Positions 19,507 through 38,280 are shown, numbered from the stretch's first letter. The stretch: 57,447 bases of DNA from Pirellulales bacterium (GCA_044336985.1 JBIIOK010000004.1:1-57447); one strand, 5' to 3'. A program made the numbers and translations. Notes: generated by a model from the letters alone, not told the origin.

Positions 19507-19655
19507 GCCCAATCCGGCCTGTGGCTGCACATGCCCTCTCGGCGGACGTTCGCTGCGGACATCCTGTCCTTCGCTCACTGCGTGTCCGCTGCGCTTCGCC
19601 ATCCTGGCTTCGCTTGCTCCCACAGCCCGCGAGAGAGCATGTGCAGCCACAGGCC
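19507..19655 (+). repeat. Family C structured element, copy 1
   Basis: Terminal stem ggcctgtggctgcacatgc / gcatgtgcagccacaggcc; core ggacgttcgctgcggacatcctgtccttcgctc. Confidence 0.85.
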
Positions 19656-19665
19656 TCGCGCTCTC

Positions 19666-19742
19666 GTAGGACAGGCGTTTTTGCCTGTGTGAAGTAAGAC
19701 AGGCTTCAGCCTGCCAGGAACAGGCAGAGAGGCCTGTTCCAC
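19666..19742. repeat. Cluster of three degenerate family A REPs
   Basis: gtaggacaggcgtttttgcctgt (19666-88), gtaagacaggcttcagcctgcc (19694-715), inverted aacaggcagagaggcctgttccac (19719-42). Confidence 0.75.
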
Positions 19743-19772
19743 ATGAAGACTAGGGCCGGATGCCCGGGTGAA

Positions 19773-19793
19773 CACCAGCGGGCGGAGCCCGCC
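19773..19793 (+). repeat. 21-bp direct repeat, copy 1
   Basis: caccagcgggcggagcccgcc, identical at 21169-21189. Confidence 0.8.
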
Positions 19794-19831
19794 AAGGAAA
19801 AATGAGCAGGATGCTCATGTTTTCCGTGAAA

Positions 19832-20164
19832 CTAGTTGTTGCTGAAATCGAGCTGCTTGCCCGACTTGATGCCGAGAGGGTTCTTCACGAACCGTTGGCG
19901 GCACGCATCGCAGAGATCGAATCGCATCGACCGCGTGCCGTCGTCGTAGAGCCCGTCATGGTCGGTCGATCGCTCGTCGATGCTCTCGAGCAATTCCTGC
20001 ATCTCCTCGAGATGATCCGCTTCGGTGCCGTCGCAGCAGCCGTTGTCGTTGTGGCCGGCGGCGACGTCTTCCACTGCCGGAAACACCTCGATCTTCACGA
20101 CATGCCGAACATCGGAGTGGAGGTTGATGGGCCGTTTGCAGACATCGCACGAATAGTGGAGCAT
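19832..20164 (-). CDS. Small acidic protein with two CxxC pairs (putative Zn-binding)
   Basis: MLHYSCDVCK...FDLCDACR; start moved to ATG 20164. Confidence 0.75.
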   Translation of the reverse strand: MLHYSCDVCKRPINLHSDVRHVVKIEVFPAVEDVAAGHNDNGCCDGTEADHLEEMQELLESIDERSTDHDGLYDDGTRSMRFDLCDACRQRFVKNPLGIKSGKQLDFSNN

Positions 20165-20386
20165 CGATTTCTCCGGTGAAAGTTGGGCTGAAACGCGGCC
20201 CCGCCCGGCGGTCGCTACTGTATGTCCTGAGTCTGCCTGCAATTTGCGTCGAAGGCAAGTCTTCAGCATGCCTTCTTGTTGGGGAGAGAGTTGGTGAGAG
20301 GCTGGGCGATTTGGCAAGGGAAAGGTTGCGAGGCTAGACTGATGGAATCCTGGTGATCTTCGGTGATCTTCCTCGAGGGGATCTTT

Positions 20387-21055
20387 ATGTCCGGTCTCGC
20401 TGCCGCGGCCCAGATCTCAGCCCCGTCGCGGTCGCTGCCGGGGGCGCTCAGCTTGAGCGTGCTCGTGCTGAACCGGTCGTTCGTGGCCGTGCACATCACC
20501 AACGTGCGGCGGGCCATCACGCTGCTTTTCCGCGAGCTCGCCGAGGTCGTGCATATCGAGGAGGGGCAGTATGCCGCCCACTCGCTCGATTCCTGGCGGG
20601 AACTCTCGTCGCTCCAGGCGGCCTTTCGCACGCCCGACCAAGACTGGGTGCAGGCCGTCGGTTACGAGCTTCAGGCCCCCCGGGTGATCAGGCTCGTGTC
20701 GTGCGACCGCGGCCCCCGCCAGGGACTGCGGTTCAACCGCCGCAACGTGTTCGCCCGCGACGGCAACCTATGCCAGTACTGTGGCCATCACTTTCCCACG
20801 AGCGAGCTGTCGCTCGACCACGTGGTGCCCCGCAGCCGCGGCGGCAACACGAGCTGGGAAAACATCGTCTGTGCATGCGTGGCCTGCAACGTCCGCAAGG
20901 GCGGTCGCACGCCTCAGGAGGCGCGGATGCAGATGATTCGCCAGCCCATGAAGCCGAAACGCAGCCCGCTGCTCACCATCAAGCTCGGCAACCCGAAATA
21001 CCAGAGCTGGAAGAGCTTCGTGGACAACGCCTACTGGCTCGCCGACCTGCGGTAG
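20387..21055 (+). CDS. HNH endonuclease (McrA-like, standalone)
   Basis: [40 protein letters not shown]. Confidence 0.92.
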
Positions 21056-21099
21056 ACTGAATCCTGTTCGGCGGTAGGGTAGCCTCCAGGCTGCCGAAA

Positions 21100-21152
21100 G
21101 TAGGACAGGCTTCAGCCTGTCAGAAGCGGCGACAGGCTGAAGCCTGTCCTAC
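21100..21152. repeat. Family A REP inverted doublet (REPIN-like)
   Basis: gtaggacaggcttcagcctgtc 21100-21121 and its reverse complement 21131-21152; a further GTAG hairpin at 21074-21095. Confidence 0.92.
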
Positions 21153-21168
21153 TTCAGCGCCGAGTGAG

Positions 21169-21189
21169 CACCAGCGGGCGGAGCCCGCC
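21169..21189 (+). repeat. 21-bp direct repeat, copy 2
   Basis: Identical to 19773-19793. Confidence 0.8.
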
Positions 21190-21254
21190 CAGGGACTATC
21201 TACGGACGGGCTTCCGCCCATCGGGGCGGCAGGATGCCGATGTTTCGCGTGTAA

Positions 21255-21527
21255 CTAGCAGAGCGGATCCTTCTTTTCTGTGATCACCGGCAGCTGCGGT
21301 GACATTTCGGCGTTGAGTTCCTTGAAGTCCTTCCACTCGGCCGGAAGGTTGTCCTCGTGGAAGATCGCCTCGACCGGGCACTCCGGGACGCACGCCTCGC
21401 AGTCGATGCACTCGTCAGGGTGGATGTAAACCATCTTGTCACCCTCGTAGAAGCACTCGACCGGGCAGACCACCACGCAGTCGGTGTACTTGCAGGCGAA
21501 ACAGGGCTCGGCAACGACGTGCGTCAT
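21255..21527 (-). CDS. fdxA: 7Fe-type dicluster ferredoxin
   Basis: [18 protein letters not shown] and [12 protein letters not shown]. Confidence 0.93.
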
Positions 21528-21733
21528 GAGCGAAAACTCCTTGGAAAGCTGAAAATCCTCGATGGCCGTTCGATCAAACTGCGCGAATCCTAGGTTGATC
21601 GCGGGAGCCTGTCAACGAATCAGGAATCGGCATTTCGGGCCGATTTCGTGAGTCCGCGGCGAATGACGTTGGTGCCGCGGCGGGGGGGCTCTATGATTTT
21701 TTCCGGAAACGCCGTTCGCCGCGAAGGTGTGCC

Positions 21734-22345
21734 ATGGCCGTCGGTCGCGAGTCTGAATCGAGTGGTCCCCCGAGGCAGGAGGGGGGGGGTGCGTCTCCGC
21801 AGGACCTCGACCTCGTGCAGGGCTGCCTCGCAGCGAGCCCGGGGGCCTGGGAGGCGCTGGTCGGCCGCTACGCCGGCCTGCTGGCCCATGTGGTCGATCG
21901 CACCACGTCGCAGCGACGGTGGCCTCTCGCCTCGGCCGACCGCGATGACTTGATCGCCGAGGTGCTCGTCGAATTGCTCAAGAACGACGCCGCGGCGCTG
22001 CGGGGATTCGCCGGCCGCTCCACGCTTGCCGCCTACCTCACCGTGATCGCCCGCCGCGTGGTGGTGCGTTCGCTGTGCCGCGATGGGCAGGCAGCGCAGC
22101 CGGCCCATCGCGTTGAGCCGGCGGCATCGCGCAGCGAGCAACGAGACATCGCCGACCGCGAGGAGATCGAGGTCCTGCTCGGCAGGCTCGACGATTCGGA
22201 TGCGCAGCTCGTGCGGCTGCACCACCTCGAATCCAGAAGCTACGGCGAGATCAGCCGGATCACCGGCCTGCCGATCGGCTCGATCGGCCCCGCGCTCTCG
22301 CGGGCGAGGCAGAAGATGCGCGAGGGTGCCGCGGCGGCGGGCTAG
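21734..22345 (+). CDS. ECF sigma-70 factor
   Basis: AWEALVGRY, DDLIAEV, YLTVIARR; region 4 SYGEISRITGLPIGSIGPALSRAR. Confidence 0.9.
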   Translation: MAVGRESESSGPPRQEGGGASPQDLDLVQGCLAASPGAWEALVGRYAGLLAHVVDRTTSQRRWPLASADRDDLIAEVLVELLKNDAAALRGFAGRSTLAAYLTVIARRVVVRSLCRDGQAAQPAHRVEPAASRSEQRDIADREEIEVLLGRLDDSDAQLVRLHHLESRSYGEISRITGLPIGSIGPALSRARQKMREGAAAAG

Positions 22346-22350
22346 CAACT

Positions 22351-22527
22351 CGCCCAACCCGGCTTCGGGCGCCCCGTACCCCGTCGCCGGACGTTTGCTA
22401 CGGGCATCCTGCCCTTCGCTCACTCGATGCTGACTGCGCCAGCCAGAGCGCCTCCGCTTGGCCATCCTGGCTGCGCTGGTCAGCAACGCCGGCTCCCGGG
22501 GCACGGGTCACCCGAAGCCTGTCCTAC
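22351..22527 (+). repeat. Family C element, copy 2, fused to half of a family A REP
   Basis: Stem ggcttcggg...cccgaagcc, continuing as gaagcctgtcctac; near-identical to 37883-38051. Confidence 0.88.
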
Positions 22528-22545
22528 TCTGAGGGACGGAGGCGA

Positions 22546-22624
22546 GTGGGTCGGCGGAAGCGTGACGAGCTTGTGGACCGAGTCCGCGAGGGACACCGCG
22601 AGGAACCTTCTGCCGCCCACGAGC
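22546..22624. repeat. Family E hairpin element, copy 2
   Basis: tcggcggaagcgtgacgagc ... ccgcgaggaaccttctgccg resembles the ends of 713-828. Confidence 0.55.
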
Positions 22625-22639
22625 CGGTGCGACACGGAA

Positions 22640-22685
22640 GATCCGCTTGCGGAGCAAGCGGTCTACTTGGGACGAAGCGGTCTAC
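22640..22685 (-). repeat. Family B GTAG-REP (one full and one partial copy)
   Basis: gatccgcttgcggagcaagcggtctac and gggacgaagcggtctac. Confidence 0.8.
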
Positions 22686-22692
22686 TGTTGGT

Positions 22693-23601
22693 TTACTGGG
22701 CCGGCGGTGGGCCGATCACGACCGACGGATCGGCGAGATCGACGGGCTCGTAGCCTTCGTAGGCCGGCATCTGCCAGAGCTGGCCGGGGTCGCTGGTCGG
22801 CGCGTTCGTCGTGATCGCCGCCAGCTCCAGCTGGAACTCGATGCCCGATGCCGGCCACGACACCTCGACGAGCCGCGGCAGAGCGGCGCCGGACTGCGGA
22901 TCGACGCGGTGCTTCGACGTGCGGGCGCTCGCCAGCCGCTCGCCGGCCGGTGTGAACAGGTGCTGCTCGACCACGAGCCCGGTGGTGCCGTCGAGGATCG
23001 TCGACTTGAGCAGTTCGCCGTCGGGGGCGGTGACGCGGCTCTTGATCTCGAGCCTGCCGTCGGGAAGCGGAAACGGCCCCTCGTGGCGGTCCTCGGGACG
23101 GAACGTCACCAGCCCCAAGAGTTCCGGCATCCAGTCGGCCCGCAGCGGCAGGAGCCGCCGTGCAGACGACTGGGCATACTGATCGTGTCGGCAGAAGAGC
23201 ATGACCGGCGGCTGGTGGCGGCGAATCCAGAGCCAGAAGAGGTCGTCGTTGCTGCCGATGTCGAGTTCGCTGCCCGTGACGCTCGTCTGCGCCCGGAGCC
23301 GAAAGCGTCGCGGCGGCTCGCAGGCCACCTGGGCCGAGAGCCGGGGCACGCCCGGCACCACCAGCACCGCCTGCGGCGCCATGTAACTCCGCACCCGCTG
23401 GGTGTTGTCGTGGACGTTCGCGATGATCTGGTCGAGCGAAGCCTGCGGCGGCAGCGCGCGGGGCAGTGGCATCGTGCCCACCTGGTAGCCACGCAGCACC
23501 TGCGGGCAGGTTGCGCCGCTCGACGCGACGGTGATCGCGATGACCGCGAAGAGCGCGGCGGGCGAGATGCGTTGCCGGTGGGACGAGAGCCTTGCCGTCA
23601 T
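22693..23601 (-). CDS. Hypothetical exported protein, possible lipoprotein
   Basis: ATGA overlap at 23598-601; hydrophobic leader ending SSGATC; ELDIGSNDDLFWLW. Confidence 0.75.
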   Translation of the reverse strand: MTARLSSHRQRISPAALFAVIAITVASSGATCPQVLRGYQVGTMPLPRALPPQASLDQIIANVHDNTQRVRSYMAPQAVLVVPGVPRLSAQVACEPPRRFRLRAQTSVTGSELDIGSNDDLFWLWIRRHQPPVMLFCRHDQYAQSSARRLLPLRADWMPELLGLVTFRPEDRHEGPFPLPDGRLEIKSRVTAPDGELLKSTILDGTTGLVVEQHLFTPAGERLASARTSKHRVDPQSGAALPRLVEVSWPASGIEFQLELAAITTNAPTSDPGQLWQMPAYEGYEPVDLADPSVVIGPPPAQ

Positions 23602-24092
23602 GCCGCACCTCCCGACCAGAGCAGCGCGGCGAGCCGCTCCTGCACGCCGTCGGCCGCGGCCGTCCGGGCCGGAACCACCTGCACGCGGTACTCGCTGTCG
23701 CGGCGCCGGCAGGCGAGGTGCATCGTGTCGGGATCGATGGCGGTCGTCGTGCCGTGGCGGTCGACCACCCGCAGCACGCGGCGGCGCACCAATTCCAGCG
23801 CGAGCAGATACCGCAGCGCCGTCTCGTCCGGCCGCCCGTCGAGCTGCTCGAGCACGTCGAGGAGCACCTCGACCGGGGCGAGCGTGGATCCGGCTGCGTC
23901 GGCGGCCGGGTAGGTCGATTTCCACCAGGCGAGGGACTGTTCTGGAGGGCCGTCCCACGCTTCGGCAGAGACGTCGAGTCGATCGAGCGTGCCCTTGCTG
24001 CGCACGAGCGCCGAATAAAACAGCTCACCCGGCACGAAGCCGCGTCCGCTCTTTCCGCAGCAGCCATTCGGTCGGTGGAGTTTCAGGTCCAT
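23598..24092 (-). CDS. Hypothetical protein
   Basis: ATG 24092; FYSALV, LAWWKS, LRYLLALELVRRRVL; coupled to the downstream gene. Confidence 0.7.
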   Translation of the reverse strand: MDLKLHRPNGCCGKSGRGFVPGELFYSALVRSKGTLDRLDVSAEAWDGPPEQSLAWWKSTYPAADAAGSTLAPVEVLLDVLEQLDGRPDETALRYLLALELVRRRVLRVVDRHGTTTAIDPDTMHLACRRRDSEYRVQVVPARTAAADGVQERLAALLWSGGAA

Positions 24093-24162
24093 GGACGTTC
24101 CGCACCGGGGGCCGCCGCGAAGGATCGACGGGGCGAGACAGTAGGGAATGGACTGCCGCCGC

Positions 24163-25089
24163 TCAACCCGCGTTGTCGCCGCGAAGCGGGGCAGGCTGGG
24201 AAAGGCCGGCGAGCAGCATGTCGGCCACCTCGCCGATGCCGTCGTCATCGTGGGCGGCCACGACGCGGTCGGCAGCCTGGAGCACGTCGGGGGTGGCGTT
24301 GCCCATCGCGATGCCGAGACCCGCGCCGCGGATCATCGGCAGGTCGTTGACGTCGTCGCCGACGGCGCAGATCGATTCGGGGGCGATGCCGAACCGCTCC
24401 GCCAAGGAGAGCACCCCCGACCATTTCGTGACGCCCGCCGGCGCGATCTCGCACATCCAGTCGCGATAGCGCGGGCTGCGGATCGTGTGCAGCGAGAGCA
24501 TGCCTGGCCAGGAGGTGTCGAGCGCCCGCTCGAGATCGAGCATCTCGGCGTGCGTGCCCATCGCAAACCCGGCGAACACGCCCTCCGGCGGGGCCAGATG
24601 GAGATCGGGCACCACGTTGGCGAGCGCCCGGTTGCGGTCGAGGTATTCCGCGACACCGCGGCTTCCGGGCACGCCGCCGGCCGCCGCTGAGGCGAGGCTG
24701 CGGCAATGGAAGTCGTAGCCCGCGGCGAAACTGTCGGTGTAAAGGATCGGCTCGTGGCCCCGGTCGACGATCGTCGAAAGCAGCCCCTCGAGCACGCCCG
24801 GGGCGAACGCCGCCCGCTCCAGGGTGGCATGGGTGCGGACATCCTTGATGAGCGCGCCGGACGCCGTTACCAGCGGCGCGTCGATCGCAAGCCGCTCCGC
24901 CACCGGGAGGACGTCGCGGTAGCGCCGCCCCGTGGCGATCATCACCCGCATCCCGGCGGCGCGGATTCGCCCCACGGCCGCGCACGTGGCGTCGGTGATC
25001 TCGTGGCGACTGTTGCTGAGCGTGCCATCGACGTCGAGGACGACGAGCCGGATGGCGGCCGGATGGCGGGCTGCTGGTGTGACGGGCAT
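24163..25089 (-). CDS. Cof-type HAD family hydrolase
   Basis: DVDGTL, IATGR, GVTK, GDDVNDLPM, AMGNA. Confidence 0.92.
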   Translation of the reverse strand: MPVTPAARHPAAIRLVVLDVDGTLSNSRHEITDATCAAVGRIRAAGMRVMIATGRRYRDVLPVAERLAIDAPLVTASGALIKDVRTHATLERAAFAPGVLEGLLSTIVDRGHEPILYTDSFAAGYDFHCRSLASAAAGGVPGSRGVAEYLDRNRALANVVPDLHLAPPEGVFAGFAMGTHAEMLDLERALDTSWPGMLSLHTIRSPRYRDWMCEIAPAGVTKWSGVLSLAERFGIAPESICAVGDDVNDLPMIRGAGLGIAMGNATPDVLQAADRVVAAHDDDGIGEVADMLLAGLSQPAPLRGDNAG

Positions 25090-25114
25090 GCCCCGTATGG
25101 TACTAAGTGGAGCC

Positions 25115-25483
25115 ATGACGCCCTCCCCCGACGACATCCCCTTCACTTCCGTGGCCCGCGTGGGCGACATTCCCGCCGGCGAGGGCCGCACCTACGAGGC
25201 CGGCGGACGGCTCGTGGCCATCTTCTTCGACGGCGAGTCCTACTCGGCGATCGACGACCTCTGCCCGCACATGGGGGCCTCGCTCGGCACCGGGCCGCTT
25301 CGCGACGGCGTCGTCACTTGCCCGTGGCACGCCTGGCGGTTTCGGCTCTGCGACGGGGCCTGGTGCGACAACCCGAAGCTGAAGGTCGATGTCTTCGAGG
25401 TGCGCGTCGTCGGCGATGCGATCGAGGTTCGCGTTCCACCGGTGAAGCCGGTGGAGTTGCCCGCTACTTCGCCGACACGGTGA
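25115..25483 (+). CDS. Rieske-type ferredoxin (NirD-like)
   Basis: CPHMGASL and CPWH; ATG 25115 after GGAG. Confidence 0.88.
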   Translation: MTPSPDDIPFTSVARVGDIPAGEGRTYEAGGRLVAIFFDGESYSAIDDLCPHMGASLGTGPLRDGVVTCPWHAWRFRLCDGAWCDNPKLKVDVFEVRVVGDAIEVRVPPVKPVELPATSPTR

Positions 25484-26168
25484 GCGAGCCACCCGGTGGG
25501 AGCACGTGCGGCTCCGCGAGTCGCTCCGCGGCCACTCGCCGCGCCCATGCGGCCGCATCCTGCTCGATCGGCGGCCAGGTGTCGTAGTGGCTCGCCAGCA
25601 CGATGCGCGGCTTCAGAAGCGCGAGCGCCTCGAGCGAGGCGTCCGGGCCCATCGTGAAGAGGTCGCCGATCGGCAGCACCGCGACGTCGATCCCCTTGCC
25701 GTCGCGCGGCCGGCCGATCCGCTCCATGTCGGAGAAGAGCCCCGTGTCGCCCGCGAGATAGATTCTGACCCCCGCCACGTCGAGCACCCAGCCGGCCGGG
25801 TTGCCGCCGTAGCTGCCGTCGGGAAGGCTCGACGAGTGATGGGCGATCTCCATCCGCGCCGTCCCGCCGGGGATCGCGGCCTGCCCGCCGAGGTTCATCG
25901 GCTGTGCCTGCTCCACCCCGTGTTTCGCCAGCCACTGCGCGATCTCCCAATTGCAATACACCTTCGCGCCGGTCCGCTTCGCGATCGCGACGAGGTCGGC
26001 GACATGATCGAAGTGGCCGTGCGTCACGAGGATCGCGTCGCAGCGGACGTCCTCCGCCTTCATCGACGCCGTCGGGCATTCGTCGAAGAACGGATCGACG
26101 AGCAGCGTGCCGCTGCCGGTGTCGATGAGCCACGTGGCGTGGCCGGTCCAGGTGAGCGTGACAGGCAT
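25464..26168 (-). CDS. Metallo-beta-lactamase-fold metal-dependent hydrolase
   Basis: GHATW, VDPF, THGHFDH, AGDT, LPIG, HYDTW. Confidence 0.92.
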   Translation of the reverse strand: MPVTLTWTGHATWLIDTGSGTLLVDPFFDECPTASMKAEDVRCDAILVTHGHFDHVADLVAIAKRTGAKVYCNWEIAQWLAKHGVEQAQPMNLGGQAAIPGGTARMEIAHHSSSLPDGSYGGNPAGWVLDVAGVRIYLAGDTGLFSDMERIGRPRDGKGIDVAVLPIGDLFTMGPDASLEALALLKPRIVLASHYDTWPPIEQDAAAWARRVAAERLAEPHVLPPGGSLTVSAK

Positions 26169-26196
26169 GGGTGTCTCCGATGAGGGCCGCAGTTGG

Positions 26197-27633
26197 TCAG
26201 GGCCGCAGCCGGCGCATCATGCACTGTTTGTAGGCCTCGACGCCGGGCTGGCCGTAGGGATTGGTACCGACGAGCCGGCCTTCGACCACGGTGGCGAGCA
26301 TGAGCATCTGCAGCACCTGGCCGATCGTGTGCTCGTCGATCCGCGGCAGGAGGATGTCGGCGGTGGGCCGCTTGTCGCTCGCGTAGGCCTCGTTCGTCCC
26401 CGCGGCAGCGGCGGCGAGCATGTCGGGCCAGGCCCTGCCGACGAGATCGTCGAGCTTGTCTTCGTTGGCGGCAAATCCGCTGATCGCGGGGAGCTTGAGC
26501 CGATCGCGCCGCGGCTCGCCCACGAGCAGGTTCGTGATCAACTTGTCGCGCCGCCCCTCCTGGTGCTGCTGGCCGCGGGAGTGGAGGTCGCGGGTCGTGA
26601 CGGTGGTGAGCGGCGTGGCCCCCTGCTCCGCCTTGCCGAGGCTTTCGGAGAGCAGCTGGTCGTACCAGAGGCCGACGGCCTCGAGCCGGTTGCTCCAGGT
26701 GGAGAGCACACGGATCGACGCCCCCATCCGGATCTCGGCGAGATGCGAGACGCCGACATACTGGAGCACGGGATTCTCGGCGACCGGCGCCTCGCGAAAC
26801 CGGCGGTTCATCGCGGCGGCCCCTTCGAGCAATCGCACGACGTCGATCCCCACGATCGAGGCGGGCAGCAGGCCGACGGCCGTGAGCACCGAGAACCGCC
26901 CTCCCACGCCGTCCGGGATGTCGAACACATCCGGGCAGCCGATCGCCCGGGCCAGATCGGCGAGCTTCCCGGACTTGCCGGTGATCGGCACGACCCGTTC
27001 CGCGAGCGCCTTGCGGTCTCCGCCCACGGAGGCGAAGAGCGCGTCGAGGAAGAGCCGCGTGGCGACGGCCGTCTCGAGCGTGCCGCCACTCTTGCTGACG
27101 ATGAGAAGGGCCCAGCGGTGGAGCAGATCGTCGGCGCCTCCGGGGGCGGCGAGCAGATCGAGCATCCCCTGCGCCGAGTCGTTGTCGATGTTGAAGCCCT
27201 CGAACGAGAGCCGCGGCCGGCCCCCCCGCTCGCCCCGGGGCAGTTCGTTGTGAAACGGATGGCAGCAGGCCTCGAACAGCGCACGCGTGCCCATGTAGGA
27301 GCCGCCGATGCCGAGGACCACCACGCGGTCCACGGCATCGCGGATCCGGCGGGCCGTCGTGAGGATCGAGAAGAGTTCGCTCTCGGGCCGCTTCGTCGTG
27401 TAGTCGGCGAGCAGCCGGTCGGGCAGGTCGATGAAGGCGGGGTCGAGCACCTCGCCCGGCTGCACGGCCCCGGAGCGGTAGCGATCGATATCGGCGAGGG
27501 ATTCCCGCCGGGCTTCGTCGAGCCGGCCGGCGAGCGAGTCGAGATCCTTTCGTGCGAGGCCGCCGGTGGCGAAGACGGCGGATGGGTCGTACTGGATCGG
27601 ATCCTCGGGCGGCTTGGGGCGGATGACGCTCAT
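26197..27633 (-). CDS. pgi: Glucose-6-phosphate isomerase
   Basis: LGIGGSYMG, SKSGGTLET, VGGRFSV, QLLSESLGK, DLHS, QPGVEAYK. Confidence 0.95.
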   Translation of the reverse strand: MSVIRPKPPEDPIQYDPSAVFATGGLARKDLDSLAGRLDEARRESLADIDRYRSGAVQPGEVLDPAFIDLPDRLLADYTTKRPESELFSILTTARRIRDAVDRVVVLGIGGSYMGTRALFEACCHPFHNELPRGERGGRPRLSFEGFNIDNDSAQGMLDLLAAPGGADDLLHRWALLIVSKSGGTLETAVATRLFLDALFASVGGDRKALAERVVPITGKSGKLADLARAIGCPDVFDIPDGVGGRFSVLTAVGLLPASIVGIDVVRLLEGAAAMNRRFREAPVAENPVLQYVGVSHLAEIRMGASIRVLSTWSNRLEAVGLWYDQLLSESLGKAEQGATPLTTVTTRDLHSRGQQHQEGRRDKLITNLLVGEPRRDRLKLPAISGFAANEDKLDDLVGRAWPDMLAAAAAGTNEAYASDKRPTADILLPRIDEHTIGQVLQMLMLATVVEGRLVGTNPYGQPGVEAYKQCMMRRLRP

Positions 27634-27702
27634 GGGGATGGCCTCGACTATTGTTGCGGGGGCTGTGCCGGTATTCTTTCCGGCGAAATGTAGCAAACAG
27701 CG

Positions 27703-28994: not shown

Positions 28995-29008
28995 GACGGC
29001 AAGCCTAC

Positions 29009-30528: not shown

Positions 30529-30642
30529 GCCAAGGTTCGTTCCTGTCCGGCTCGTCTGGTTCTTGTCCGTCTTTTCTCTTCTTTGATCTGCAGCCCGTTT
30601 GACTTGTCTTTTTGGGGATAGGGTTTTTTGGGGGATTTTCCC

Positions 30643-31176: not shown

Positions 31177-31220
31177 TTGCCAGTCAAGGAGTCTCGGTCC
31201 TGAGTCGTTGCACAGGAATC

Positions 31221-31454: not shown

Positions 31455-31465
31455 AGAGCCAGGGC

Positions 31466-32815
31466 TTACCAACGGGTCTCGACGCCGAGGCCGCCCAGGT
31501 CGGCCATCGGCAGCGGCACGACGCTCACCTCCATCCCGCCGAAATGGAGCTCCGTATTGCTGACTGCCCGCGAGCTGGCCCACGCGAGGTACCAGCCGAG
31601 GAAGACCTGCGACGGGAAGTGTGAATCGGTCGTCATGCGCGAGAATCCGACGAACGTCGAGCAGACGTAGAGCGCTCCCTTTGCCAGCGGGCTCTCCACC
31701 ATGTCGGCCGCCGCAAGGAATGGGATCGCTCCGACGAAGGCATGGCCGCTCACGCCGTTGTCATCCTGGAAGAACTTCCACTGGCTTCCGGCCGAGCTGT
31801 TTTCGAGGGGACGCGACGCACCGGTGGCCAGCTGCATGACATAGACCGGCGGCGCGCCGACGATGAACATGCGCAGTGAACGCGAGCCCCATTCGCCCAG
31901 CACGTCGCCGCCAGGCTGGCCCTCGAAGACGAGCCCGGTGAGGCCCGCCACGCCGAAGATGGCCAATGCATACCGCCCCTCGCCGATATCCTTGCAGCCC
32001 CGGAAGAACGTGCCGACATCGGTGGGTTCCACGCTTTGTTGCCAGGCATCCTGCATCGTCATGTCGAAGCCGGTGTTGGCCATCAAGGCGCCGGCGCCGA
32101 AGGCACCGGTGATGCAGACGAGGCTTTCGCAGGAATAGAAGTTGCGGTAATCCTCCAGCACCTTGTAGCCGAACCGCGCCGCCCGCGGATGCTTGCTATG
32201 GGCCCACGGGGGCTCGTTGCGAGCGGCGAGCATGCTCTCCCCGGTGAGCGGCGGCAGTGAGTAGACCGGCTCCGTCGTCGGGGCCATTCGCGCGGCGAAT
32301 TGGGTGGTGATGTTCCTCCTGTCGCCGTTCCATGAGGCGGCGGGCCAGCCGCCGGTGAGTTCCACTCGGCCGGGGACGTCGGCCTCTTGGGCCGCGGCGA
32401 TCGCCTGTGTCTCGACGATCACATCGATCCAGGCTCCGTGTGCGGTGGGGACGACACGCACGACCACCCGCTGCCGTCGCGGTGGCCAGGCCGCCGCGGC
32501 GATCGGCAGCGATCCCGGCGCAGGGGGTTCACCGGGTGGCTCGACCCAGGCCGATTCGATGACGCCCTCGCGGGGCGGCGTCGACGTGAAGTCGGGCTCG
32601 ACCGCCCGCACGATCGGCCAGTCGGTGGCAACCGTGGCCAAAGTCTGCCGCCAGAGGAGCCTGCCGTTCTCGCTCGGCAGGAACATGCCCCCGGCATCTT
32701 CCGCGGCGGGGGTCGCCGGCGGCTCGTCGGCCCAGGCGAGCGACGCGGAGATTGCGATCACGAGCGCCGATAGCGCCGCGCGCGCGAACGCCGATCGCTT
32801 CACCGCGTCGAACAT
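31466..32815 (-). CDS. PAP2-family phosphatase with long exported N-terminal region
   Basis: SRP, SGHAF, SRMTTDSHFPSQV; signal peptide ending AWA; ATG 32836 also possible. Confidence 0.82.
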   Translation of the reverse strand: MFDAVKRSAFARAALSALVIAISASLAWADEPPATPAAEDAGGMFLPSENGRLLWRQTLATVATDWPIVRAVEPDFTSTPPREGVIESAWVEPPGEPPAPGSLPIAAAAWPPRRQRVVVRVVPTAHGAWIDVIVETQAIAAAQEADVPGRVELTGGWPAASWNGDRRNITTQFAARMAPTTEPVYSLPPLTGESMLAARNEPPWAHSKHPRAARFGYKVLEDYRNFYSCESLVCITGAFGAGALMANTGFDMTMQDAWQQSVEPTDVGTFFRGCKDIGEGRYALAIFGVAGLTGLVFEGQPGGDVLGEWGSRSLRMFIVGAPPVYVMQLATGASRPLENSSAGSQWKFFQDDNGVSGHAFVGAIPFLAAADMVESPLAKGALYVCSTFVGFSRMTTDSHFPSQVFLGWYLAWASSRAVSNTELHFGGMEVSVVPLPMADLGGLGVETRW

Positions 32816-32901
32816 GTGGAACGGATTGGGGGGCATCGGTGGGGGGGGGAATGTCCCAGCCGACGCCCCGCGGGGCAAGGCGTTTTTGGGGCCTGAAAAC
32901 A

Positions 32902-33073
32902 CGCCCAATCCGGCCCGAGGCTGCCTGTACCCTCTCGGCGGACGTTCGCTGCGGACATCCTGTCCTCCGCCAGCATGCCCGCTCGCCAGCCAGAGCGCCT
33001 CCGCTTGGGCATCCTGCCTACGCTCGCGAGCAATAGCCCGCGAGAAGGTACAGGCAGCCCCGGGCCTACCCGC
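32902..33073 (+). repeat. Family C element, copy 3
   Basis: Stem ggcccgaggctgcctgtacc / ggtacaggcagccccgggcc with conserved core. Confidence 0.88.
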
Positions 33074-33080
33074 GTCTGAA

Positions 33081-33127
33081 GTAGGACAGGCTTCAGCCTG
33101 TCTCAGACAGGCTGAAGCCTGTCCTAC
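33081..33127. repeat. Family A REP inverted doublet
   Basis: 33081-33102 and 33106-33127. Confidence 0.92.
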
Positions 33128-33135
33128 ATCGGGGA

Positions 33136-33348
33136 GGCTTCGGGTGACCCGTGCCCCGGGAGCCGGCGGTGCTGACAAGCTACGGAAGCCCGCAGCGCAA
33201 GCAAGGTCCATCCGCTCTCCACTTCGACCAGTTACGCTCCCACCTGCCCCGCGAGAAACGCCCCCAACTCTCCTCGCTCGCGCGTCGGGCTTCCGTACCG
33301 TCCGTAGCGAGCGTCCGGCGACGGGTCACCCGAAGCCGGTTTTTGGCG
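33136..33348 (-). repeat. Family C element, copy 4, centre replaced by a family D element
   Basis: Arms 33136-33180 and 33298-33348 match the reverse complement of copy 2. Confidence 0.82.
33181..33297. mobile_element. Family D MITE-like element (117 bp)
   Basis: Terminal inverted repeats tacggaagcccg / cgggcttccgta extending imperfectly to 26 bp; interior similar to 49011-49126; mobility is inferred. Confidence 0.65.
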
Positions 33349-33359
33349 CGTGAGCGTGC

Positions 33360-33381
33360 GACAGGCTGAAGCCTGTCCTAC
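33360..33381 (-). repeat. Family A REP containing the TAG stop of the HlyD gene
   Basis: gacaggctgaagcctgtcctac; stop at 33378-80. Confidence 0.9.
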
Positions 33382-34508
33382 TGATTCGGCGGGGCTTCGA
33401 TGAAGACTTCCATCTGCTGGCCGACGAAGAGCGGCGGCCGGTCGGCGGGGTCGCACTCGTAGATGACCTGCAGCACCCGCGTGTCCACCCGCTCCGTGTT
33501 GTCGCCGGTGAGCGATTTCTTCGGCACGACGAACGGCTCGACCCGGACGAACTCGAGCGGATACCGCTCCTGGAGGCTGCCGCGCGGCACGGCGGAGGCC
33601 TTGGCGTTGCTTGCGAATCGGGAGATGTCAAACTCGTCGATGTCGACCCGCACGTGGAGCCGCTCGATGTTGCCGAGGATCACGAGCGGCTGGCCCGGCG
33701 GGGCGCCGACGAACTCTCCCGGATGCACGTTCACCTGAAGGACCCGCCCGGCCACGAGCGACCGAACGATCAGCCGATCGAGATCCGTCTCGATCTTGGC
33801 CACCTCCGCCTCCGACTTCGAGACACCAGCGCGGGTGACGTCGCGGTCGTATTCCCAGGAGCCGGCCTTGAGCAGCGCAAGATCGGCCTGCGACCGCTCG
33901 AGATTGGCCTGCGCAGCCGCGAGCGCCTCGCGCCGCGCGATCAGTTCCTGTTCGGTCGTGACCTTGCGGGCGAACGTGTCCTCGGTGCGACGCAAGGCGT
34001 CGGTCTCGCGGGCCACGTTTGCCTGCGCCTCGTTGACTTGAGCCACGAGCACCGGGATTTTTTCCTTGCGGGGCTCCGCCTCGAGCCGCACCAGTTCGCT
34101 CTTTGACTGCGCCACCGCGGCCCGCTTCACGGCGAGTTCCCCCTGCAGCTGCCGGTCGTCGAGGCGGAAGAGCGGCTTGCCCGGCTGCACTTCGTCTCCG
34201 ACCTTGACGAGCACCTCCGTCACGACGCCCGGCGTCGCCGACCCGACGGCGATGTTCTCCGTCTGGGCCTCCACCACGCCGGCTGCCGCGAGCGTCGCGG
34301 CGAACGGGCTGCGGGCCGGCTCGATCGGCGGTGGCGGCGTCTGCACGATCACGCGGTTTCGCCAGACATACCAGCCCGCAAAGCCCAAGAGCGAGAGGGC
34401 GACGAGCGGCAGGACGAACTGCGTCACGAAGTCTCCGTCGCTGCGGCGACGGTTCAGCCGCGGCTTTCCGCGGGCGGGCGGCGCAATGTCGTCGGGAGCG
34501 ACCGCCAT
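33378..34508 (-). CDS. HlyD/DevB-type membrane fusion protein
   Basis: TM anchor, lipoyl half-motifs (VKVGDEVQPGKPLF, GRVLQVNVHPGEFV), coiled coil, ERVDTRVLQV. Confidence 0.9.
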   Translation of the reverse strand: MAVAPDDIAPPARGKPRLNRRRSDGDFVTQFVLPLVALSLLGFAGWYVWRNRVIVQTPPPPIEPARSPFAATLAAAGVVEAQTENIAVGSATPGVVTEVLVKVGDEVQPGKPLFRLDDRQLQGELAVKRAAVAQSKSELVRLEAEPRKEKIPVLVAQVNEAQANVARETDALRRTEDTFARKVTTEQELIARREALAAAQANLERSQADLALLKAGSWEYDRDVTRAGVSKSEAEVAKIETDLDRLIVRSLVAGRVLQVNVHPGEFVGAPPGQPLVILGNIERLHVRVDIDEFDISRFASNAKASAVPRGSLQERYPLEFVRVEPFVVPKKSLTGDNTERVDTRVLQVIYECDPADRPPLFVGQQMEVFIEAPPNQ

Positions 34509-34512
34509 GCTG

Positions 34513-35772
34513 TCAGCCTCCGTGGGCCGGGGAAGCCGCCAACTCGGCGTGGGATCTCGCCCAAGCGTCGAGCATCGCCACCTGCTTCGAAAAATCCTGC
34601 TCGGCGACATTGAGCGGGCTCTTGAAGAAGCAGGCGAGCCACTCGATCGCACCGTATTCCCCCGCGCGGCTGGCCCGTTCGATCAGCCGCACGAGGTCGA
34701 GCACCAGCGGCGCCGCGAGGATCGAATCGCAGCCCTGCCAGGTGAATTGGAGCGTCATCGGCGTGCCGAGAAAACCGCGGAAATGGATGTGGTCCCAGGC
34801 CGTCTTCCAGTCGCCCAGGCTCTTGATGTATTCGATCGAGACGTGGGTCTGCGGCGGGTAGCCGAGGATGGCAGCGAGCAGGTGGTCCTTGCTCCGCACC
34901 TTCGCCGCCTTGTTGCGCGGATCGTCGAGCACCTTGCCATCCATGTTGCCGAAGATGTTGTGGCCCACCCAGCTCATCACTTCGAGGTTGCGGGCGGCGA
35001 ACATTGGCGCGAGCACGCTCTTGAGGAGCGTTTCCCCCGTCTTGCCATCGCAGCCCGCGTGGGCGATCCGTAGGTCGCGGGCCACCTGTTGCAGGCAGGC
35101 AGGCGTCGAGCCGGTGGATGGGGTGAAATTGACGTAGGAGGCCCCTGCTTCCGCGGCCGCGAGGAAGTAGAGACTGCTGGCCGGCAGCGGGCACTTCTCC
35201 GCGCTGCCGAGCAGCGGCTCCACGGCGGAGAAATCGTCCGGGATCGGCAGGGCCGGCGGCGGCTCCGTGGACGCGACGTTGACGACGACGACGTGGCCGA
35301 GCCCCTCGGCCTTCTGGAAGGCCTCGATGTCGCCGCGTACGCGGTCGATCGCCGCCCGCGGAGTCTCAACCACGGCCGCCGTGCGCGGGTCGGCGAGGCT
35401 GCGGATGCGGTCTCCAGAGGCGACGAGCGTGCCGGGACGCAGCCTCGACTCGACTTCAGCGAAGAACCCGGCGGCGTCGGCGAGCAATTGCGGGGTGATC
35501 GCCCGGCTCTCCGCCCACATTCGCTGGGCCTCGTCACCGAGCCGCCCGGCGCGGATGTCGTGGCCGCCGACGACGATGTCTTGGAAGTCGACGAGCGCGA
35601 GCCGCGTGAAGGGGTCGAGCGCGGTGACGACGCCCACGGGGTCGATCGCCCCGCGGCGAAGTGCCGCCAGCCCAGTCATCAGCGTCGTGGCGACGCCCCC
35701 CTTCGCCCCGATGAGCCAGAGACCTATTCGCGGGGGAGGGAGCGGGCGCGAGGGAAGGGGCGAAGGCTGCAT
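34513..35772 (-). CDS. ino1: Inositol-3-phosphate (myo-inositol-1-phosphate) synthase
   Basis: LIGAKGGVA, NVASTE, VNFTPS, GCDGKTGET, NIFGNMDG, GDWK, DSILAAPLVLDL. Confidence 0.93.
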   Translation of the reverse strand: MQPSPLPSRPLPPPRIGLWLIGAKGGVATTLMTGLAALRRGAIDPVGVVTALDPFTRLALVDFQDIVVGGHDIRAGRLGDEAQRMWAESRAITPQLLADAAGFFAEVESRLRPGTLVASGDRIRSLADPRTAAVVETPRAAIDRVRGDIEAFQKAEGLGHVVVVNVASTEPPPALPIPDDFSAVEPLLGSAEKCPLPASSLYFLAAAEAGASYVNFTPSTGSTPACLQQVARDLRIAHAGCDGKTGETLLKSVLAPMFAARNLEVMSWVGHNIFGNMDGKVLDDPRNKAAKVRSKDHLLAAILGYPPQTHVSIEYIKSLGDWKTAWDHIHFRGFLGTPMTLQFTWQGCDSILAAPLVLDLVRLIERASRAGEYGAIEWLACFFKSPLNVAEQDFSKQVAMLDAWARSHAELAASPAHGG

Positions 35773-35802
35773 GCAGTCATTCTTTGCCGGATGTGCCCGG
35801 CG

Positions 35803-36582
35803 TCAAGGACGCTCGGGCGAACGCGGGGCCGGCGCGGCGACGTGGTGAGGACCCGACGCCACCGACTCGATCCGACCGTCCTCCATCGATGCGATGCGGT
35901 CGGCGAATGAATAAGCCCGCGAGTCGTGCGTGACGACGATCACGGCCCGGTCAGGCTGGACGGCGATGTCTTGAATCAGTTCCATCGTGATCCGGCCATT
36001 CTCGGCGTCGAGCGCGCTTGTCGGCTCGTCGCAGACCAGAAGCCGCGGCTCGTGGACGAGCGCCCGCGCGATCGCCACCCGCTGCTGCTGCCCCCCCGAG
36101 AGCTCGCTCGGCAGATTCGTGAGCCGATCGCCGAGGCCGAGCCGGTCGAGCACGTCGGCGGCAGCGGCGACGGCGTCGGACCGCCGCCAGCCGGCGATGA
36201 GCAGCGGCACGGCGGCGTTCTCGACGGCCGTGAGCGAGGGCAGCAGGTTGTAGGACTGAAAGATGAAGCCGACGTTTTCGCGGCGGAATCGCACCTTACG
36301 GCCGTTCGTCATGGTGACCAGATTCCTGCCCAAGACCATACAAGCGCCGGCCGACGGCTCGAGCGTGCCGGCGATGATCGAGACGAGCGTCGTCTTGCCG
36401 CAGCCGCTCGGGCCCACGAGCATGAGCAGTTCGCCGTAGGGCACGTCGAGATCCACGCCGCGCAGCGCCCGCGTCATCGAGTCGCCGCTGCCGAATTCCT
36501 TCGTCACGCCCCTCACGCGGATGGCCATCTCCTCCGTGCCGATGTCGTCGAACGTGTGCGGGGTGGTCATGGCAGGCTTCAT
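35803..36582 (-). CDS. ABC transporter ATPase (DevA/LolD/MacB-like)
   Basis: GPSGCGKT, LSGGQQQRV, CDEPT, VTHD; ATGA overlap with permease stop. Confidence 0.95.
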   Translation of the reverse strand: MKPAMTTPHTFDDIGTEEMAIRVRGVTKEFGSGDSMTRALRGVDLDVPYGELLMLVGPSGCGKTTLVSIIAGTLEPSAGACMVLGRNLVTMTNGRKVRFRRENVGFIFQSYNLLPSLTAVENAAVPLLIAGWRRSDAVAAAADVLDRLGLGDRLTNLPSELSGGQQQRVAIARALVHEPRLLVCDEPTSALDAENGRITMELIQDIAVQPDRAVIVVTHDSRAYSFADRIASMEDGRIESVASGPHHVAAPAPRSPERP

Positions 36583-37715
36583 CCGCGAAAGACGACGGCC
36601 GGGTCGAGCACGAGCACCTTGCGGATCGAGAGCACGCTCGCCACGAGCACGATCACGAACACCGCCGCCGCCGTGATCGCCAGCACCTGCCAGGGCATGA
36701 AGAAGGAGAGCCGCGTCATGCTGCGTGACCACCAGCCGAAGAGGGCCGCCAGCCCCACGCCCACGCCATAGCCCACGAGCCCCACGTGGAGGGCCTGCGA
36801 GAGCACCATGAGCAGGATCATCCAGTTGCTCGTGCCCATCGCCTTGAGGGCGCCGAACTGGCGGATGTTTTCCACGGTGAAGAGATAGAAGGTCTGCCCC
36901 GCGATCGCCGTGCCGACGAAGAACCCAAGCAACACGGTGATGCCGAAGTTGATCGGGATGCCGGTCTTCCGCAGGTAGTAGACGATCGTCTTGCGGAGGA
37001 ACTGGTCGCGGGTGACCGCCTGCAGGCCCGTCTGTTCCTCGATCCGGCGGCAGACATCCTCCGCCGCGAGCCCCGGCTTGGGGCTGGCCAGAACGAACGA
37101 CAGCACCTTCCGCTCCGGCGGCGCGAACGTCACCGCCTGGCTGTACCGCGTGTAGAGAATGGGAAAACTCTGGAACGTGCGACTGGCCTTCGTGATCCCC
37201 ACAATCACGGCCCGGTGATCGTTCATCTCGAAAACGCGGCCCAACCGGAAGGGTTCGCCCGGCCAGATCCGCTTGTAGCCGGCGTCGTCGATGATCACCG
37301 CATCGGGCTTGCGCAGGTCGGCGATCGAGCCCATGAAGACCCCCCCCGGCGCGCCGACGAGCGTGGCATCGTCGAGGCCCAGCAGGATCACCTGCTCGTA
37401 GGAGCCCTCTTCGAGACGGGCCCGTGCGATCCCCTTGTAGAACCGCACCGCCCAGTCGACCCCTGGCACGCCCTTCACGCGAAAGAGCTCGGTGTCGGAG
37501 AGCGGCTTGATGTCGTCGACGAACTGGACGTTTTCGTCCATCACCCAGATGCTCGGCCCCTGCACGTCGCGAATCTGGCTGACGGTGAGCGACATGAGGC
37601 CGCAGAAGATCGAGGCCTGCTGCGCGATGAGGAGCGCAGCGAACACGACCCCGAAGACGATGCCGAGGTACTTCGCCCGGTTGCCGATCAGCATCTTCCA
37701 CGCGATCCAAAACAT
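36579..37715 (-). CDS. ABC transporter permease (DevC/FtsX-like)
   Basis: One N-terminal TM, large periplasmic domain, three C-terminal TMs; FGALKAMG; DPAVVF. Confidence 0.92.
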   Translation of the reverse strand: MFWIAWKMLIGNRAKYLGIVFGVVFAALLIAQQASIFCGLMSLTVSQIRDVQGPSIWVMDENVQFVDDIKPLSDTELFRVKGVPGVDWAVRFYKGIARARLEEGSYEQVILLGLDDATLVGAPGGVFMGSIADLRKPDAVIIDDAGYKRIWPGEPFRLGRVFEMNDHRAVIVGITKASRTFQSFPILYTRYSQAVTFAPPERKVLSFVLASPKPGLAAEDVCRRIEEQTGLQAVTRDQFLRKTIVYYLRKTGIPINFGITVLLGFFVGTAIAGQTFYLFTVENIRQFGALKAMGTSNWMILLMVLSQALHVGLVGYGVGVGLAALFGWWSRSMTRLSFFMPWQVLAITAAAVFVIVLVASVLSIRKVLVLDPAVVFRG

Positions 37716-37763
37716 GCCGCGAGTCTACCGCTCCGCGGAAACCCGCGTCGACCGCTTCGTAAA

Positions 37764-37790
37764 GTAGGCCGCTTCGTCCCGAAGCGGATC
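37764..37790 (+). repeat. Family B GTAG-REP
   Basis: gtaggccgcttcgtcccgaagcggatc; partial copy at 37747-37760. Confidence 0.8.
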
Positions 37791-37882
37791 TGTCTTCACG
37801 CAAAACATCGCCATCCGGGCGATTTTTTCTTGGCAACCTCCGGTTGCTGGTTCTCGCCCGGCCCTCCAGGCCTAGTGCTATG

Positions 37883-38051
37883 CGCCCAACCCGGCTTCGG
37901 GCGACCCGTACCCCGTCGCCGGACGCTCGCTGCGGACATCCTGTCCTTCGCTCGCTCGATGCTGACTGCGCCAGCCAGAGCGCCTCCGCTTGGGCATCCT
38001 GCCTGCGCTTGTCAGCAACGCCGGCGAGCGGGGTACGGGTCGCCCGAAGCC
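37883..38051 (+). repeat. Family C element, copy 5
   Basis: Stem ggcttcgggcgacccgtaccc / gggtacgggtcgcccgaagcc. Confidence 0.9.
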
Positions 38052-38059
38052 TCCGTCTC

Positions 38060-38112
38060 GTAGGACAGGCTTCAGCCTGTCATCAATCAAGACAGGCTGA
38101 AGCCTGTCCTAC
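38060..38112. repeat. Family A REP inverted doublet
   Basis: 38060-38081 and 38091-38112. Confidence 0.92.
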
Positions 38113-38123
38113 TAATCAATAAA

Positions 38124-38280
38124 GCGGGTAGGCACGGGGCTGCCTGTGCCCTCTCGCGGGCTATGGAAGCGAGCGCAGGCAGGATGCCGAAGCGAAGCGG
38201 ACATGCAGTGAGCGAAGGACAGGATGTCCGTAGCGAACGTCCGCCGAGAGGGTACAGGCAGCCTCGTGCCGGGTTAGGCG
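38124..38280 (-). repeat. Family C element, copy 6
   Basis: Reverse-orientation copy; stem ggcacggggctgcctgtgccctctcg / cgagagggtacaggcagcctcgtgcc; family B fragment follows at 38292-38306. Confidence 0.88.

Follow-up and report, generated by a model that had tools for sequence, protein, structure and literature searches.

A previously undescribed hairpin repeat with covarying stems in one family of uncultured planctomycetes

Short interspersed repeats are well studied in Proteobacteria and hardly in Planctomycetota. The closest described systems are the GTAG-headed repetitive extragenic palindromes (REPs), with their hairpin-forming doublets (REPINs) and the bacterial interspersed mosaic elements (BIMEs), all of which are mobilised by REP-associated tyrosine transposases (RAYTs). 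According to the text of Di Nocera et al. (2013; PMC3733652), Planctomycetes contain GTAG REPs, some RAYT-like genes have other inverted repeats at their flanks and, in Pseudomonas, REPs are joined to unrelated stem-loops; it also treats miniature inverted-repeat transposable elements (MITEs) with long hairpins as modifiers of mRNA structure. Here we analyzed 57,447 bases of DNA from a Pirellulales bacterium (GCA_044336985.1, JBIIOK010000004.1:1-57447; hereafter the window), in which an earlier reading of the bare sequence (the sequence-only reading) had pointed to six copies of a repeat termed family C. Family C, an interspersed repeat of 145-185 bases that is neither coding nor autonomous, is restricted to one lineage. 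It constitutes a previously undescribed family, of which dozens of copies are spread between the genes of bacteria from a single uncultured planctomycete family. On balance, we lean towards regarding family C as a non-autonomous hairpin repeat that exists as a DNA element and passes through a single-stranded stage coupled to replication. Such a stage is what we infer beyond the observed anatomy, distribution, turnover and two strand biases of the element.

Family C resembles the REPs, REPINs and BIMEs in being a high-copy extragenic palindrome found at gene 3' ends, in having a hairpin that appears to matter as a single strand, and in forming mosaic arrays and inverted dimers. The palindrome of a REP spans 20-40 bases, whereas family C is four to eight times longer and has a branched apex with constant loops. 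No GTAG stands at the foot of its hairpin (CC/GGC...GCC/TCC, the slashes marking the feet); the tetranucleotide belongs to separate units, REP-A and REP-B, that lie 8-18 bases off. Unlike the REPs, family C flanks none of the 16 Y1-transposase loci scanned, occurs without REPs in the sister genus, and is abundant in genomes without a match to Y1_Tnp. With the insertion sequences of the IS200/IS605 group it would share a recognition that depends on structure rather than on end sequence, and it shares the lack of a visible target duplication and a replication-coupled orientation. In contrast to the separate left and right subterminal hairpins of IS200/IS605, family C is a single large hairpin, and its wobble-favoured strand is opposite to that expected on the lagging-strand template. 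Correia/NEMIS, ERIC and RUP elements are all intergenic, imperfect palindromes of 100-200 bases that are co-transcribed with their neighbours; by comparison, the termini of family C vary and covary around a constant centre, and neither a target duplication nor a parent insertion sequence was found for it. Single-strand origins and initiation signals of plasmids and phages are hairpins of 100-300 bases, functional in just one orientation on the lagging-strand template, with conserved loops and variable stems. A replicon has a single such signal, with an established role in priming, whereas family C comprises dozens of chromosomal copies. The reverse strand of each copy exposes two CAGGAUG loops, reminiscent of CsrB/RsmZ; a unit has only two such sites, no promoter or terminator of its own was seen, its orientation is unrelated to transcription, and the CsrA sites are predicted. 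Altogether, family C is best filed among the bacterial interspersed palindromic repeats, behaviourally near REP/BIME and single-strand-transposon biology, although by their defining features it is neither a REP nor a MITE and it corresponds to no Rfam family.

The build of the element can be read from an alignment of 57 copies. A leader of ~16 bases, present in the window genus only, stands before a closing stem of 23-30 base pairs, the sequence of which is variable while its two arms remain complementary. By reading the alignment we counted at least four stem types in one genome: type 1 carries TTCGGGYGACCCGTACCCCG, and the mid-arms of types 2, 2b and 3 are CTGCCTG, CTGCACA and CTGCCCA, respectively. 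In contrast to the stems, the apical part is near-invariant across genera. Folding resolves the interior into two tandem homologous units of ~32 bases, each comprising a short interrupted helix that leads to a mini-hairpin with the loop CATCCTG. Folded as RNA, the window copies have minimum free energies of -78 to -117 kcal/mol, and one copy at -82.8 kcal/mol gave z = -7.9 against 200 shuffles. The reverse strand was the better folder in all five intact window copies; the DNA folding energies of the copy at 38124..38286 were -42.1 kcal/mol for the reverse strand and -35.1 kcal/mol for the forward strand. A small open reading frame within family C was rejected by eye, with one-base indels and non-synonymous covarying changes falling inside it. 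Core sites of integron attC elements read RYYYAAC ... GTTRRRY. The GCCCAAC of the leader fits the former half, but this motif does not pair, a monomer offers it no partner at the opposite end, and the copies do not occur in cassette arrays; the assignment to attC was rejected. Three copies of the window genome (C93:3925-4113, C100:437-629 and C216:51077-50888) carry a hairpin of ~28 bases (CGACCAATCCGCTAACGCGGATCGGTG) inserted in the loop region of the first mini-hairpin. The same insert was found in one copy of a relative (L127, at the site of window 32837-33377), and inserts resembling it occupy other positions in two copies from other genomes.

Covariation of the stems was assessed on the reverse strand in an alignment of 63 sequences (five from the window and 58 from other genomes), with the structure predicted by RNAalifold. 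Compensatory double changes were found in 26 of the 42 predicted pairs, paired cells amounted to 95.9% (84.7% in shuffles), and the covariation score was 0.338 against 0.130 in shuffles; for each of five measures, none of 500 shuffles equalled the observed value. When the partner was slid by 1-3 columns as a control, pairing fell to 31-42%. The main helix shows double changes in 18 of its 21 pairs, and the stems of the mini-hairpins covary as well (GGAC/GTCC with GGGC/GCCC, and GGC/GCC with GCC/GGC) under constant loops. One G.U pair is retained in 62 of the 63 sequences. Thus, the covariation of family C is genuine and at a level usual for functional RNAs. The sequence-only reading had ascribed the changing stems to selection on structure, and this proposal is borne out: compensatory change keeps the stem pairing, and the covariation is significant in the larger alignment. 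Private double changes are abundant (283, versus 227 single changes), which is compatible with rapid compensation. Template switching between the arms of a quasi-palindrome is a general mechanism, and such templated correction between the arms may have hastened the compensation.

The two strands of the element are not equivalent. Of the wobbles in the outer stem (non-Watson-Crick transitions), 117 are compatible with a G.U pair on the reverse strand and 25 with one on the forward strand. Counted in unique sequence contexts the figures are 104 vs 24 (p = 5e-13), with the bias seen both in type 1 and in types 2/3. When only private changes are counted, each copy being compared with its nearest neighbour, the reverse strand is favoured by 173 vs 41 (p = 2e-20), and the bias recurs in the window genome (41:10), in the sister genus (72:18) and elsewhere (60:13). 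As both members of a dimer are biased relative to their own polarity, the wobble bias belongs to the element and not to its chromosomal place. Stem substitutions on the forward strand include 74 G>A versus 25 C>T, and at unpaired sites G>A per G is ~2 times C>T per C.

A second bias relates the element to replication. Orientation was sampled in 58 sequence windows (1.07 Mb) of three sister-genus genomes, which contained 98 matches (85 near full length, 77 stand-alone, 60 with callable skew), and the GC skew was taken after removing the coding-strand effect. Of the 60 stand-alone copies with callable skew, 52 had their forward strand on the G-rich strand and 8 had the opposite arrangement (p = 5e-9). 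The bias was found in each genome (20:5, 16:2 and 16:1) and persisted when counted by sampled window (34 vs 2, 6 being mixed). Relative to the genes, the stand-alone copies in tandem intergenic regions were 18 sense and 23 antisense. Gene orientation served to check the sign of the skew: the ribosomal-protein operon was co-oriented with the G-rich strand in three of three cases, one rpoB was weakly consistent and one was ambiguous. Under the conventional reading of GC skew, this makes the forward strand the template of lagging-strand synthesis. The GC skew of a closed relative (G042, 4.81 Mb) turns at ~0 and 2.05 Mb, and each of these points has a DnaA-like gene, the stronger Pfam DnaA match being at 2.05 Mb and not at the record start. 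Therefore, dnaA did not settle the sign of the skew, and the origin of this closed genome is ambiguous.

Family C is abundant within, and confined to, a narrow lineage. The searches used a profile built from five window copies (nhmmer) and a covariance model built later (R1). The profile gave 113 matches in the window genome, a draft of 2.84 Mb in 243 contigs (85% complete, 67.8% G+C), and 63 of them are near-full copies. BLAST with one copy detected the element in all 15 other genomes of the genus and in six of nine other genera of the family, while other families yielded one weak match among 16. The covariance model found it in six of seven sampled genomes of the family and in none of 113 genomes from 29 other families of the order. 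Public genomes scanned with an exact pattern gave at least 110 stretches; among the matches listed, most bear the titles of metagenome-assembled genomes of Planctomycetota, Planctomycetia, Planctomycetaceae or Pirellulales, and roughly a fifth are otherwise labelled, chiefly as Candidatus Kuenenia. Viral contigs gave no match to a conserved 33-base pattern. In the sampled regions of the sister genus the density was ~1 copy per 11 kb, a value inflated by windows centred on known copies. At gathering thresholds, Rfam recognised only a tRNA in the whole window; relaxed thresholds added only microRNA-precursor hairpin models, far below their cut-offs (e.g., 50 vs 268 bits). The claim of the sequence-only reading that the element is not a named family thus holds. 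Full-text literature searches, which did not extend to the species REP lists in the supplements of PMC3733652, retrieved no description of family C or REP-A. The nine matches to the REP-A sequence were in unrelated papers, and word searches for planctomycete repeats and for CsrA brought up general papers only.

The copies occupy a particular kind of intergenic space. Genes of the window genome were called with a simple codon-bias caller of our own (2279 genes, 87% of the genome covered), and none of the 63 copies overlaps a gene. Among the 48 copies with both flanks known, none lies in a divergent intergenic region, though 338 of 2036 regions are divergent, and 23 lie in convergent ones, though only 296 of 2036 regions are convergent. 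The 103 flanking proteins include no recurrent neighbour, forming just two clusters of two proteins each, and no transposase or TnpB gene was found in or beside any copy. For most copies (47 of 63), a partner of opposite orientation lies no more than 130 bases away. The 29 pairs are without exception tail-to-tail, the leaders pointing outward, and none is head-to-head; in the 18 pairs with both members typed, type 1 is always combined with type 2 or 3. The pairs that lack a central REP doublet are joined by a conserved, oriented linker of ~30 bases, and therefore the dimer itself is a repeated unit. A dimer of a single type would be a near-perfect palindrome of ~350 bases, which is probably not viable. 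The polarity of the dimers is random relative to transcription (6 vs 4).

Comparison among congeners revealed fast turnover, with seven of seven orthologous loci differing in presence, absence, orientation or type. The mosaic of ~600 bases at window 37716-38313 is absent in one relative, in which the flanking genes lie on the same strand, 9 bases apart; therefore, an operon-like junction has been split by the mosaic. What separates these two genes in the window is a REP-B, a terminator-like hairpin and a family C dimer. The same site holds a different palindrome in two other relatives and only a leader-to-leader remnant in a fourth. At 32837-33377, one relative has an empty site, whereas a second harbors a copy that differs in type and orientation. 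Five further loci in the sister genus vary between species by presence, absence, a truncated remnant, inversion or duplication. No target duplication was seen at the ends of the pairs, and one indel, of ~330 bases and with a direct repeat of 4 bases at its borders, exceeds family C in size. Copies with nested insertions and truncations persist. An autonomous parent was sought and rejected: the split matches represent internal deletions, and there is no longer copy with a coding interior. Leader-like matches unattached to a copy number 23, the intergenic ones being truncated remnants while the rest look like chance matches in genes. Many copies sit at contig ends, and thus family C breaks the assemblies of these genomes.

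All six copies that had been proposed in the window proved real, being recovered by both the profile and the covariance model (Table 1). R1 matched exactly these six loci in the window, apart from far lower-scoring matches to the opposite strand at three of them and to one REP doublet. The leader had been noted as a shorter motif; it is longer (~TCAACTCGCCCAAYCC) and was confirmed in five of the six copies, being degenerate in the interrupted one. The two inner mini-hairpins are present in the five intact copies and missing from the interrupted copy, as had been observed, and alignment and folding agree that the closing stems differ from copy to copy with each arm pairing to its own partner. 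The first copy is stand-alone and followed by REP-A variants, and the second begins immediately past the stop codon of the upstream gene. In the interrupted copy, where the profile matches only the 3' arm (33182-33129, minus strand), the mini-hairpins are replaced by an unrelated palindromic insert of ~110 bases. This repeat (ACGGAAGCCCG ... CGGGCTTCCGT) occupies window 33165-33320, and pieces of it adjoin family C copies on contigs C240 and C122. A poly-run, GGTGGGGGGGGGAATG, lies at window 32833-32846, at the predicted start of a gene on the minus strand (31466-32836); homopolymers of this kind are prone to length errors or phase variation.

Table 1. Family C copies and associated REPs in the window (E values from nhmmer with the five-copy profile; bit scores from the covariance model R1)
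Feature	Coordinates	Strand	Evidence
Family C copy, type 2b stem (CTGCACATGCCC)	19497..19662	+	nhmmer E 2e-41; R1 152.9 bits on reverse strand; folded
Family C copy, type 1 stem with 18-base internal insert	22342..22527	+	nhmmer E 1.5e-48; R1 148.5 bits
Family C copy, type 2 stem, left member of first tail-to-tail pair	32894..33072	+	nhmmer E 3.9e-49; R1 118.9 bits
Inverted REP-A (GTAG-type REP) doublet, centre of first pair	33081..33127	.	exact: 33081-33102 (+), 33106-33127 (-)
Family C copy, type 1 stem, interrupted, right member of first pair	33131..33351	-	R1 39.8 bits, full model
REP-B (second GTAG-type REP family), upstream of second pair	37764..37790	+	1 mismatch to GTAGACCGCTTCGTCCCGAAGCGGATC
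Family C copy, type 1 stem, 18-base insert, left member of second pair	37874..38056	+	nhmmer E 1.1e-50; R1 152.8 bits
Inverted REP-A doublet, centre of second pair	38060..38112	.	exact: 38060-38081 (+), 38091-38112 (-)
Family C copy, type 2 stem, right member of second pair	38124..38286	-	nhmmer E 4.6e-45; R1 161 bits; folded

The relationship with REPs is looser than the window suggests. REP-A is a classical GTAG-headed REP (GTAGGACAGGCTTCAGCCTGTC), the core of which occurs 339 times in the window genome, with 490 sites at up to 3 mismatches; REP-B, a second GTAG-headed REP, has 236-397 copies there depending on stringency. The sequence-only reading had placed a REP near every 3' end of the element. 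This is roughly true in the window, where an exact or near-exact REP-A starts 8-18 bases past the stem in four of six copies, a variant REP lies 10 bases past the stem of the copy at 19507, and no more than half a REP, inverted and 11 bases long, overlaps the stem end of the copy at 22351. As a rule it fails genome-wide, with a REP-A within ~60 bases 3' of just 28 of the 63 near-full copies. Upstream of family C, REP-B was found in 16 and REP-A in 7 of the 63. REP-B often lies just upstream through a conserved linker, and a second REP-B of the window is at 51605-51631 (-). In the sister genus, the flanks of nine copies examined are unique sequence, with no REP, leader or partner. Thus, REP adjacency is a feature of the window genus only, reflecting genus-specific mosaicism: in this genus family C is fused with two GTAG-type REP families and the leader into BIME-like mosaics, mostly heterotypic tail-to-tail dimers. 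The link to REP biology that had been proposed is therefore not supported as an intrinsic one, as no Y1 locus scanned is flanked by family C either.

RAYT-like Y1 transposases are the obvious mobiliser candidates, yet they are not tied to family C. The scan covered 16 Y1_Tnp loci of the window genus, two Y1 loci of the sister genus being left out. REP-A arrays flank one of them, REP-B one, and another palindrome, the X repeat (AAAGGTGTCAGGACTCTTTT), three, while 11 have none of these. RAYT-like genes with REP-B and with REP-A arrays at their flanks occur in relatives (L150 and L147, respectively). The two Y1 proteins of the window genome scored 65 and 71 bits against the cut-off of 80 in the NCBIfam model for REP-associated tyrosine transposases. 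Genomes without a Y1_Tnp match comprise three of five in the sister genus (95-98% complete) and five of 16 in the window genus, and all of them are copy-rich. A RAYT-like Y1 gene of 224 residues is bracketed by the inverted X repeat on a contig of the window genome (C37, ~2230-2940; L011 1439-2146), and also at L142 and L143. The X palindrome without the gene occupies the site orthologous to window 37716-38313 in two relatives.

A separate family of ~45-base repeats resembles a two-way intrinsic terminator (TTCACG..AAAACATCGGCATCCTGCCGATTTTT..CTTGGCG) and has the same CATCCTG loop as the mini-hairpins of family C. In the window it lies at ~19785-19835 (-) and 21208-21258 (-), with a variant at 37790-37835; eight clear members are among the 12 intergenic CATCCTG hairpins listed. 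The window genome has three csrA paralogs (C56:5827-5982, C163:707-856 and C240:12266-12436), and two of the three are followed by a family C copy within 1 kb.

Under the reading that we lean towards, family C would come and go, and change its orientation, in intergenic positions over times comparable to the divergence of species, would pass through or be exposed in a fork-coupled single-stranded state, folding as a hairpin, and would be recognised in that state by its conserved apical part and not by its ends. A folded single-stranded stage would explain the stem covariation, the pile-up of wobbles on one strand and the one-way orientation of stand-alone copies relative to replication. Coupling to replication and not to transcription, nothing conserved outside the hairpin, the lack of an associated gene and the fast turnover argue for a DNA element rather than an RNA gene. 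Of the two options in the sequence-only reading, a structured non-coding RNA or a non-autonomous element mobilised as single-stranded DNA, the evidence leans to the latter in a replication-linked form, and an RNA gene is less favoured. Nevertheless, we retain the RNA option as a minority view. The element would then be a structured RNA, made by read-through or from its own promoter, that stabilises the 3' ends of mRNAs, terminates them or offers a target to RNases, or else a CsrA decoy on the reverse strand with its two CAGGAUG loops. RNA-level covariation, the nearly universal G.U pair, wobbles favouring one strand and the preference for gene 3' ends all suit such an RNA. CAGGAUG is the CsrB repeat, and CsrA is described as recognising GGA in hairpin loops; both mini-hairpin loops on the wobble-favoured (reverse) strand read CAGGATG, with GGA at the tip. 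The relatives have 2-5 csrA paralogs against three in the window genome, and copies lie within 1.5 kb of one csrA paralog at seven of 18 loci. This neighbourhood is one orthologous, inherited locus, and the other close paralog has none in 11; the csrA enrichment is therefore not independent evidence. Family C sequences were also present in contigs of all four metatranscriptome runs from three studies, with the repeat regions at a summed depth far above the flanking genes. As contig depth sums ~100 copies and those of relatives, carries no strand or end information and may include DNA carry-over, we conclude only that the repeat is present in the libraries. Furthermore, the orientation of the copies is indifferent to neighbour genes and tied to the skew, the polarity of the dimers is random to transcription, and by eye stand-alone copies share nothing outside the hairpin, so that there is no common promoter or terminator. 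Altogether, we regard a functional RNA as an unlikely explanation.

The orientation bound to replication could also be expected of a DNA structure used by the host on the single-stranded lagging-strand template, namely a hairpin resembling an initiation or primosome-assembly site or a binding site for a fork or nucleoid protein, kept by host selection and not by its own spread. Apical loops constant across genera over variable stems fit this possibility, as do the copies persisting in genomes without a Y1 transposase match, and the terminator-like family with the same CATCCTG loop hints at a shared binding factor. On the other hand, sites needed at fixed places would not be expected to be polymorphic at seven of seven loci among congeners. 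The repeat is also confined to one family of the order, its copies persist with nested insertions and truncations, and we know of no chromosomal precedent for such hairpins. A host-used structure is thus less probable again. A classical MITE, in which the closing stem represents terminal inverted repeats bound in double-stranded form by the DDE transposase of a related insertion sequence, would account for the size, the 23-30-base inverted termini, the high copy number and the intergenic placement. The supposed terminal repeats are, however, the most variable part of the element around a constant interior, a combination that speaks for a folded single strand being recognised and not for a MITE of the DDE type. 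Target duplications were seen neither at the ends of the pairs nor at the compared sites, the flanks of which are too diverged for exact borders. No longer copy with a coding interior exists, and the leaders unattached to a copy represent truncated remnants. Both the strand asymmetry of the wobbles and the replication-linked orientation fall outside the predictions of a DDE mechanism, and we consider this explanation very improbable.

Several observations weigh against a single-stranded, replication-coupled stage as well. The seven compared loci gave no clean empty site, no target duplication and no transposition event, the exact borders being undefined because the flanks are too diverged. The best matches to one window copy are 91-94% identical, copies within a genome not being near-identical, and thus there is no sign of a recent burst. 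Nor is any enzyme linked to the element, with none of the 16 Y1 loci of the window genus flanked by family C and no Y1_Tnp match in eight of 21 copy-rich genomes, though drafts may miss genes. The window genome itself displayed no orientation bias (stand-alone copies 5 vs 3, dimer polarity 7 vs 5), albeit with small counts, and the gene calls, element types and skew came from simple scripts of our own and not from a standard annotator. Finally, wobble tolerance and the forward-strand excess of G>A mark the reverse strand as the one folded or exposed, and the two strand signals together misfit the simplest IS608-like picture, in which the well-folding strand is on the lagging-strand template. 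They could be reconciled if copies with the better-folding strand on that template were preferentially lost, by excision or by slippage across the hairpin, so that the survivors would show the opposite orientation. Alternatively, the bias may reflect selection against stable hairpins on the exposed template. A more specific version of the replication-coupled reading, which we put forward tentatively and consider rather doubtful, is that family C is the substrate of a fork-coupled single-strand mobilisation or maintenance independent of RAYT/IS200-type Y1 transposases. The mini-hairpins with CATCCTG loops would then be recognised by another factor, and gain or loss would be set by which parental strand bears the better-folding strand.

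Family C is structured like an RNA, yet behaves as a replication-oriented DNA element. If the replication-coupled reading is true, covariation by itself does not make a repeat an RNA gene, and a mobilising factor would still be to be discovered in these bacteria. The heterotypic dimers, the strand-specific wobbles and the orientation bias would then provide a clean set of natural data on the survival of long hairpins in the chromosomes of bacteria. Family C could also serve as a strain marker.

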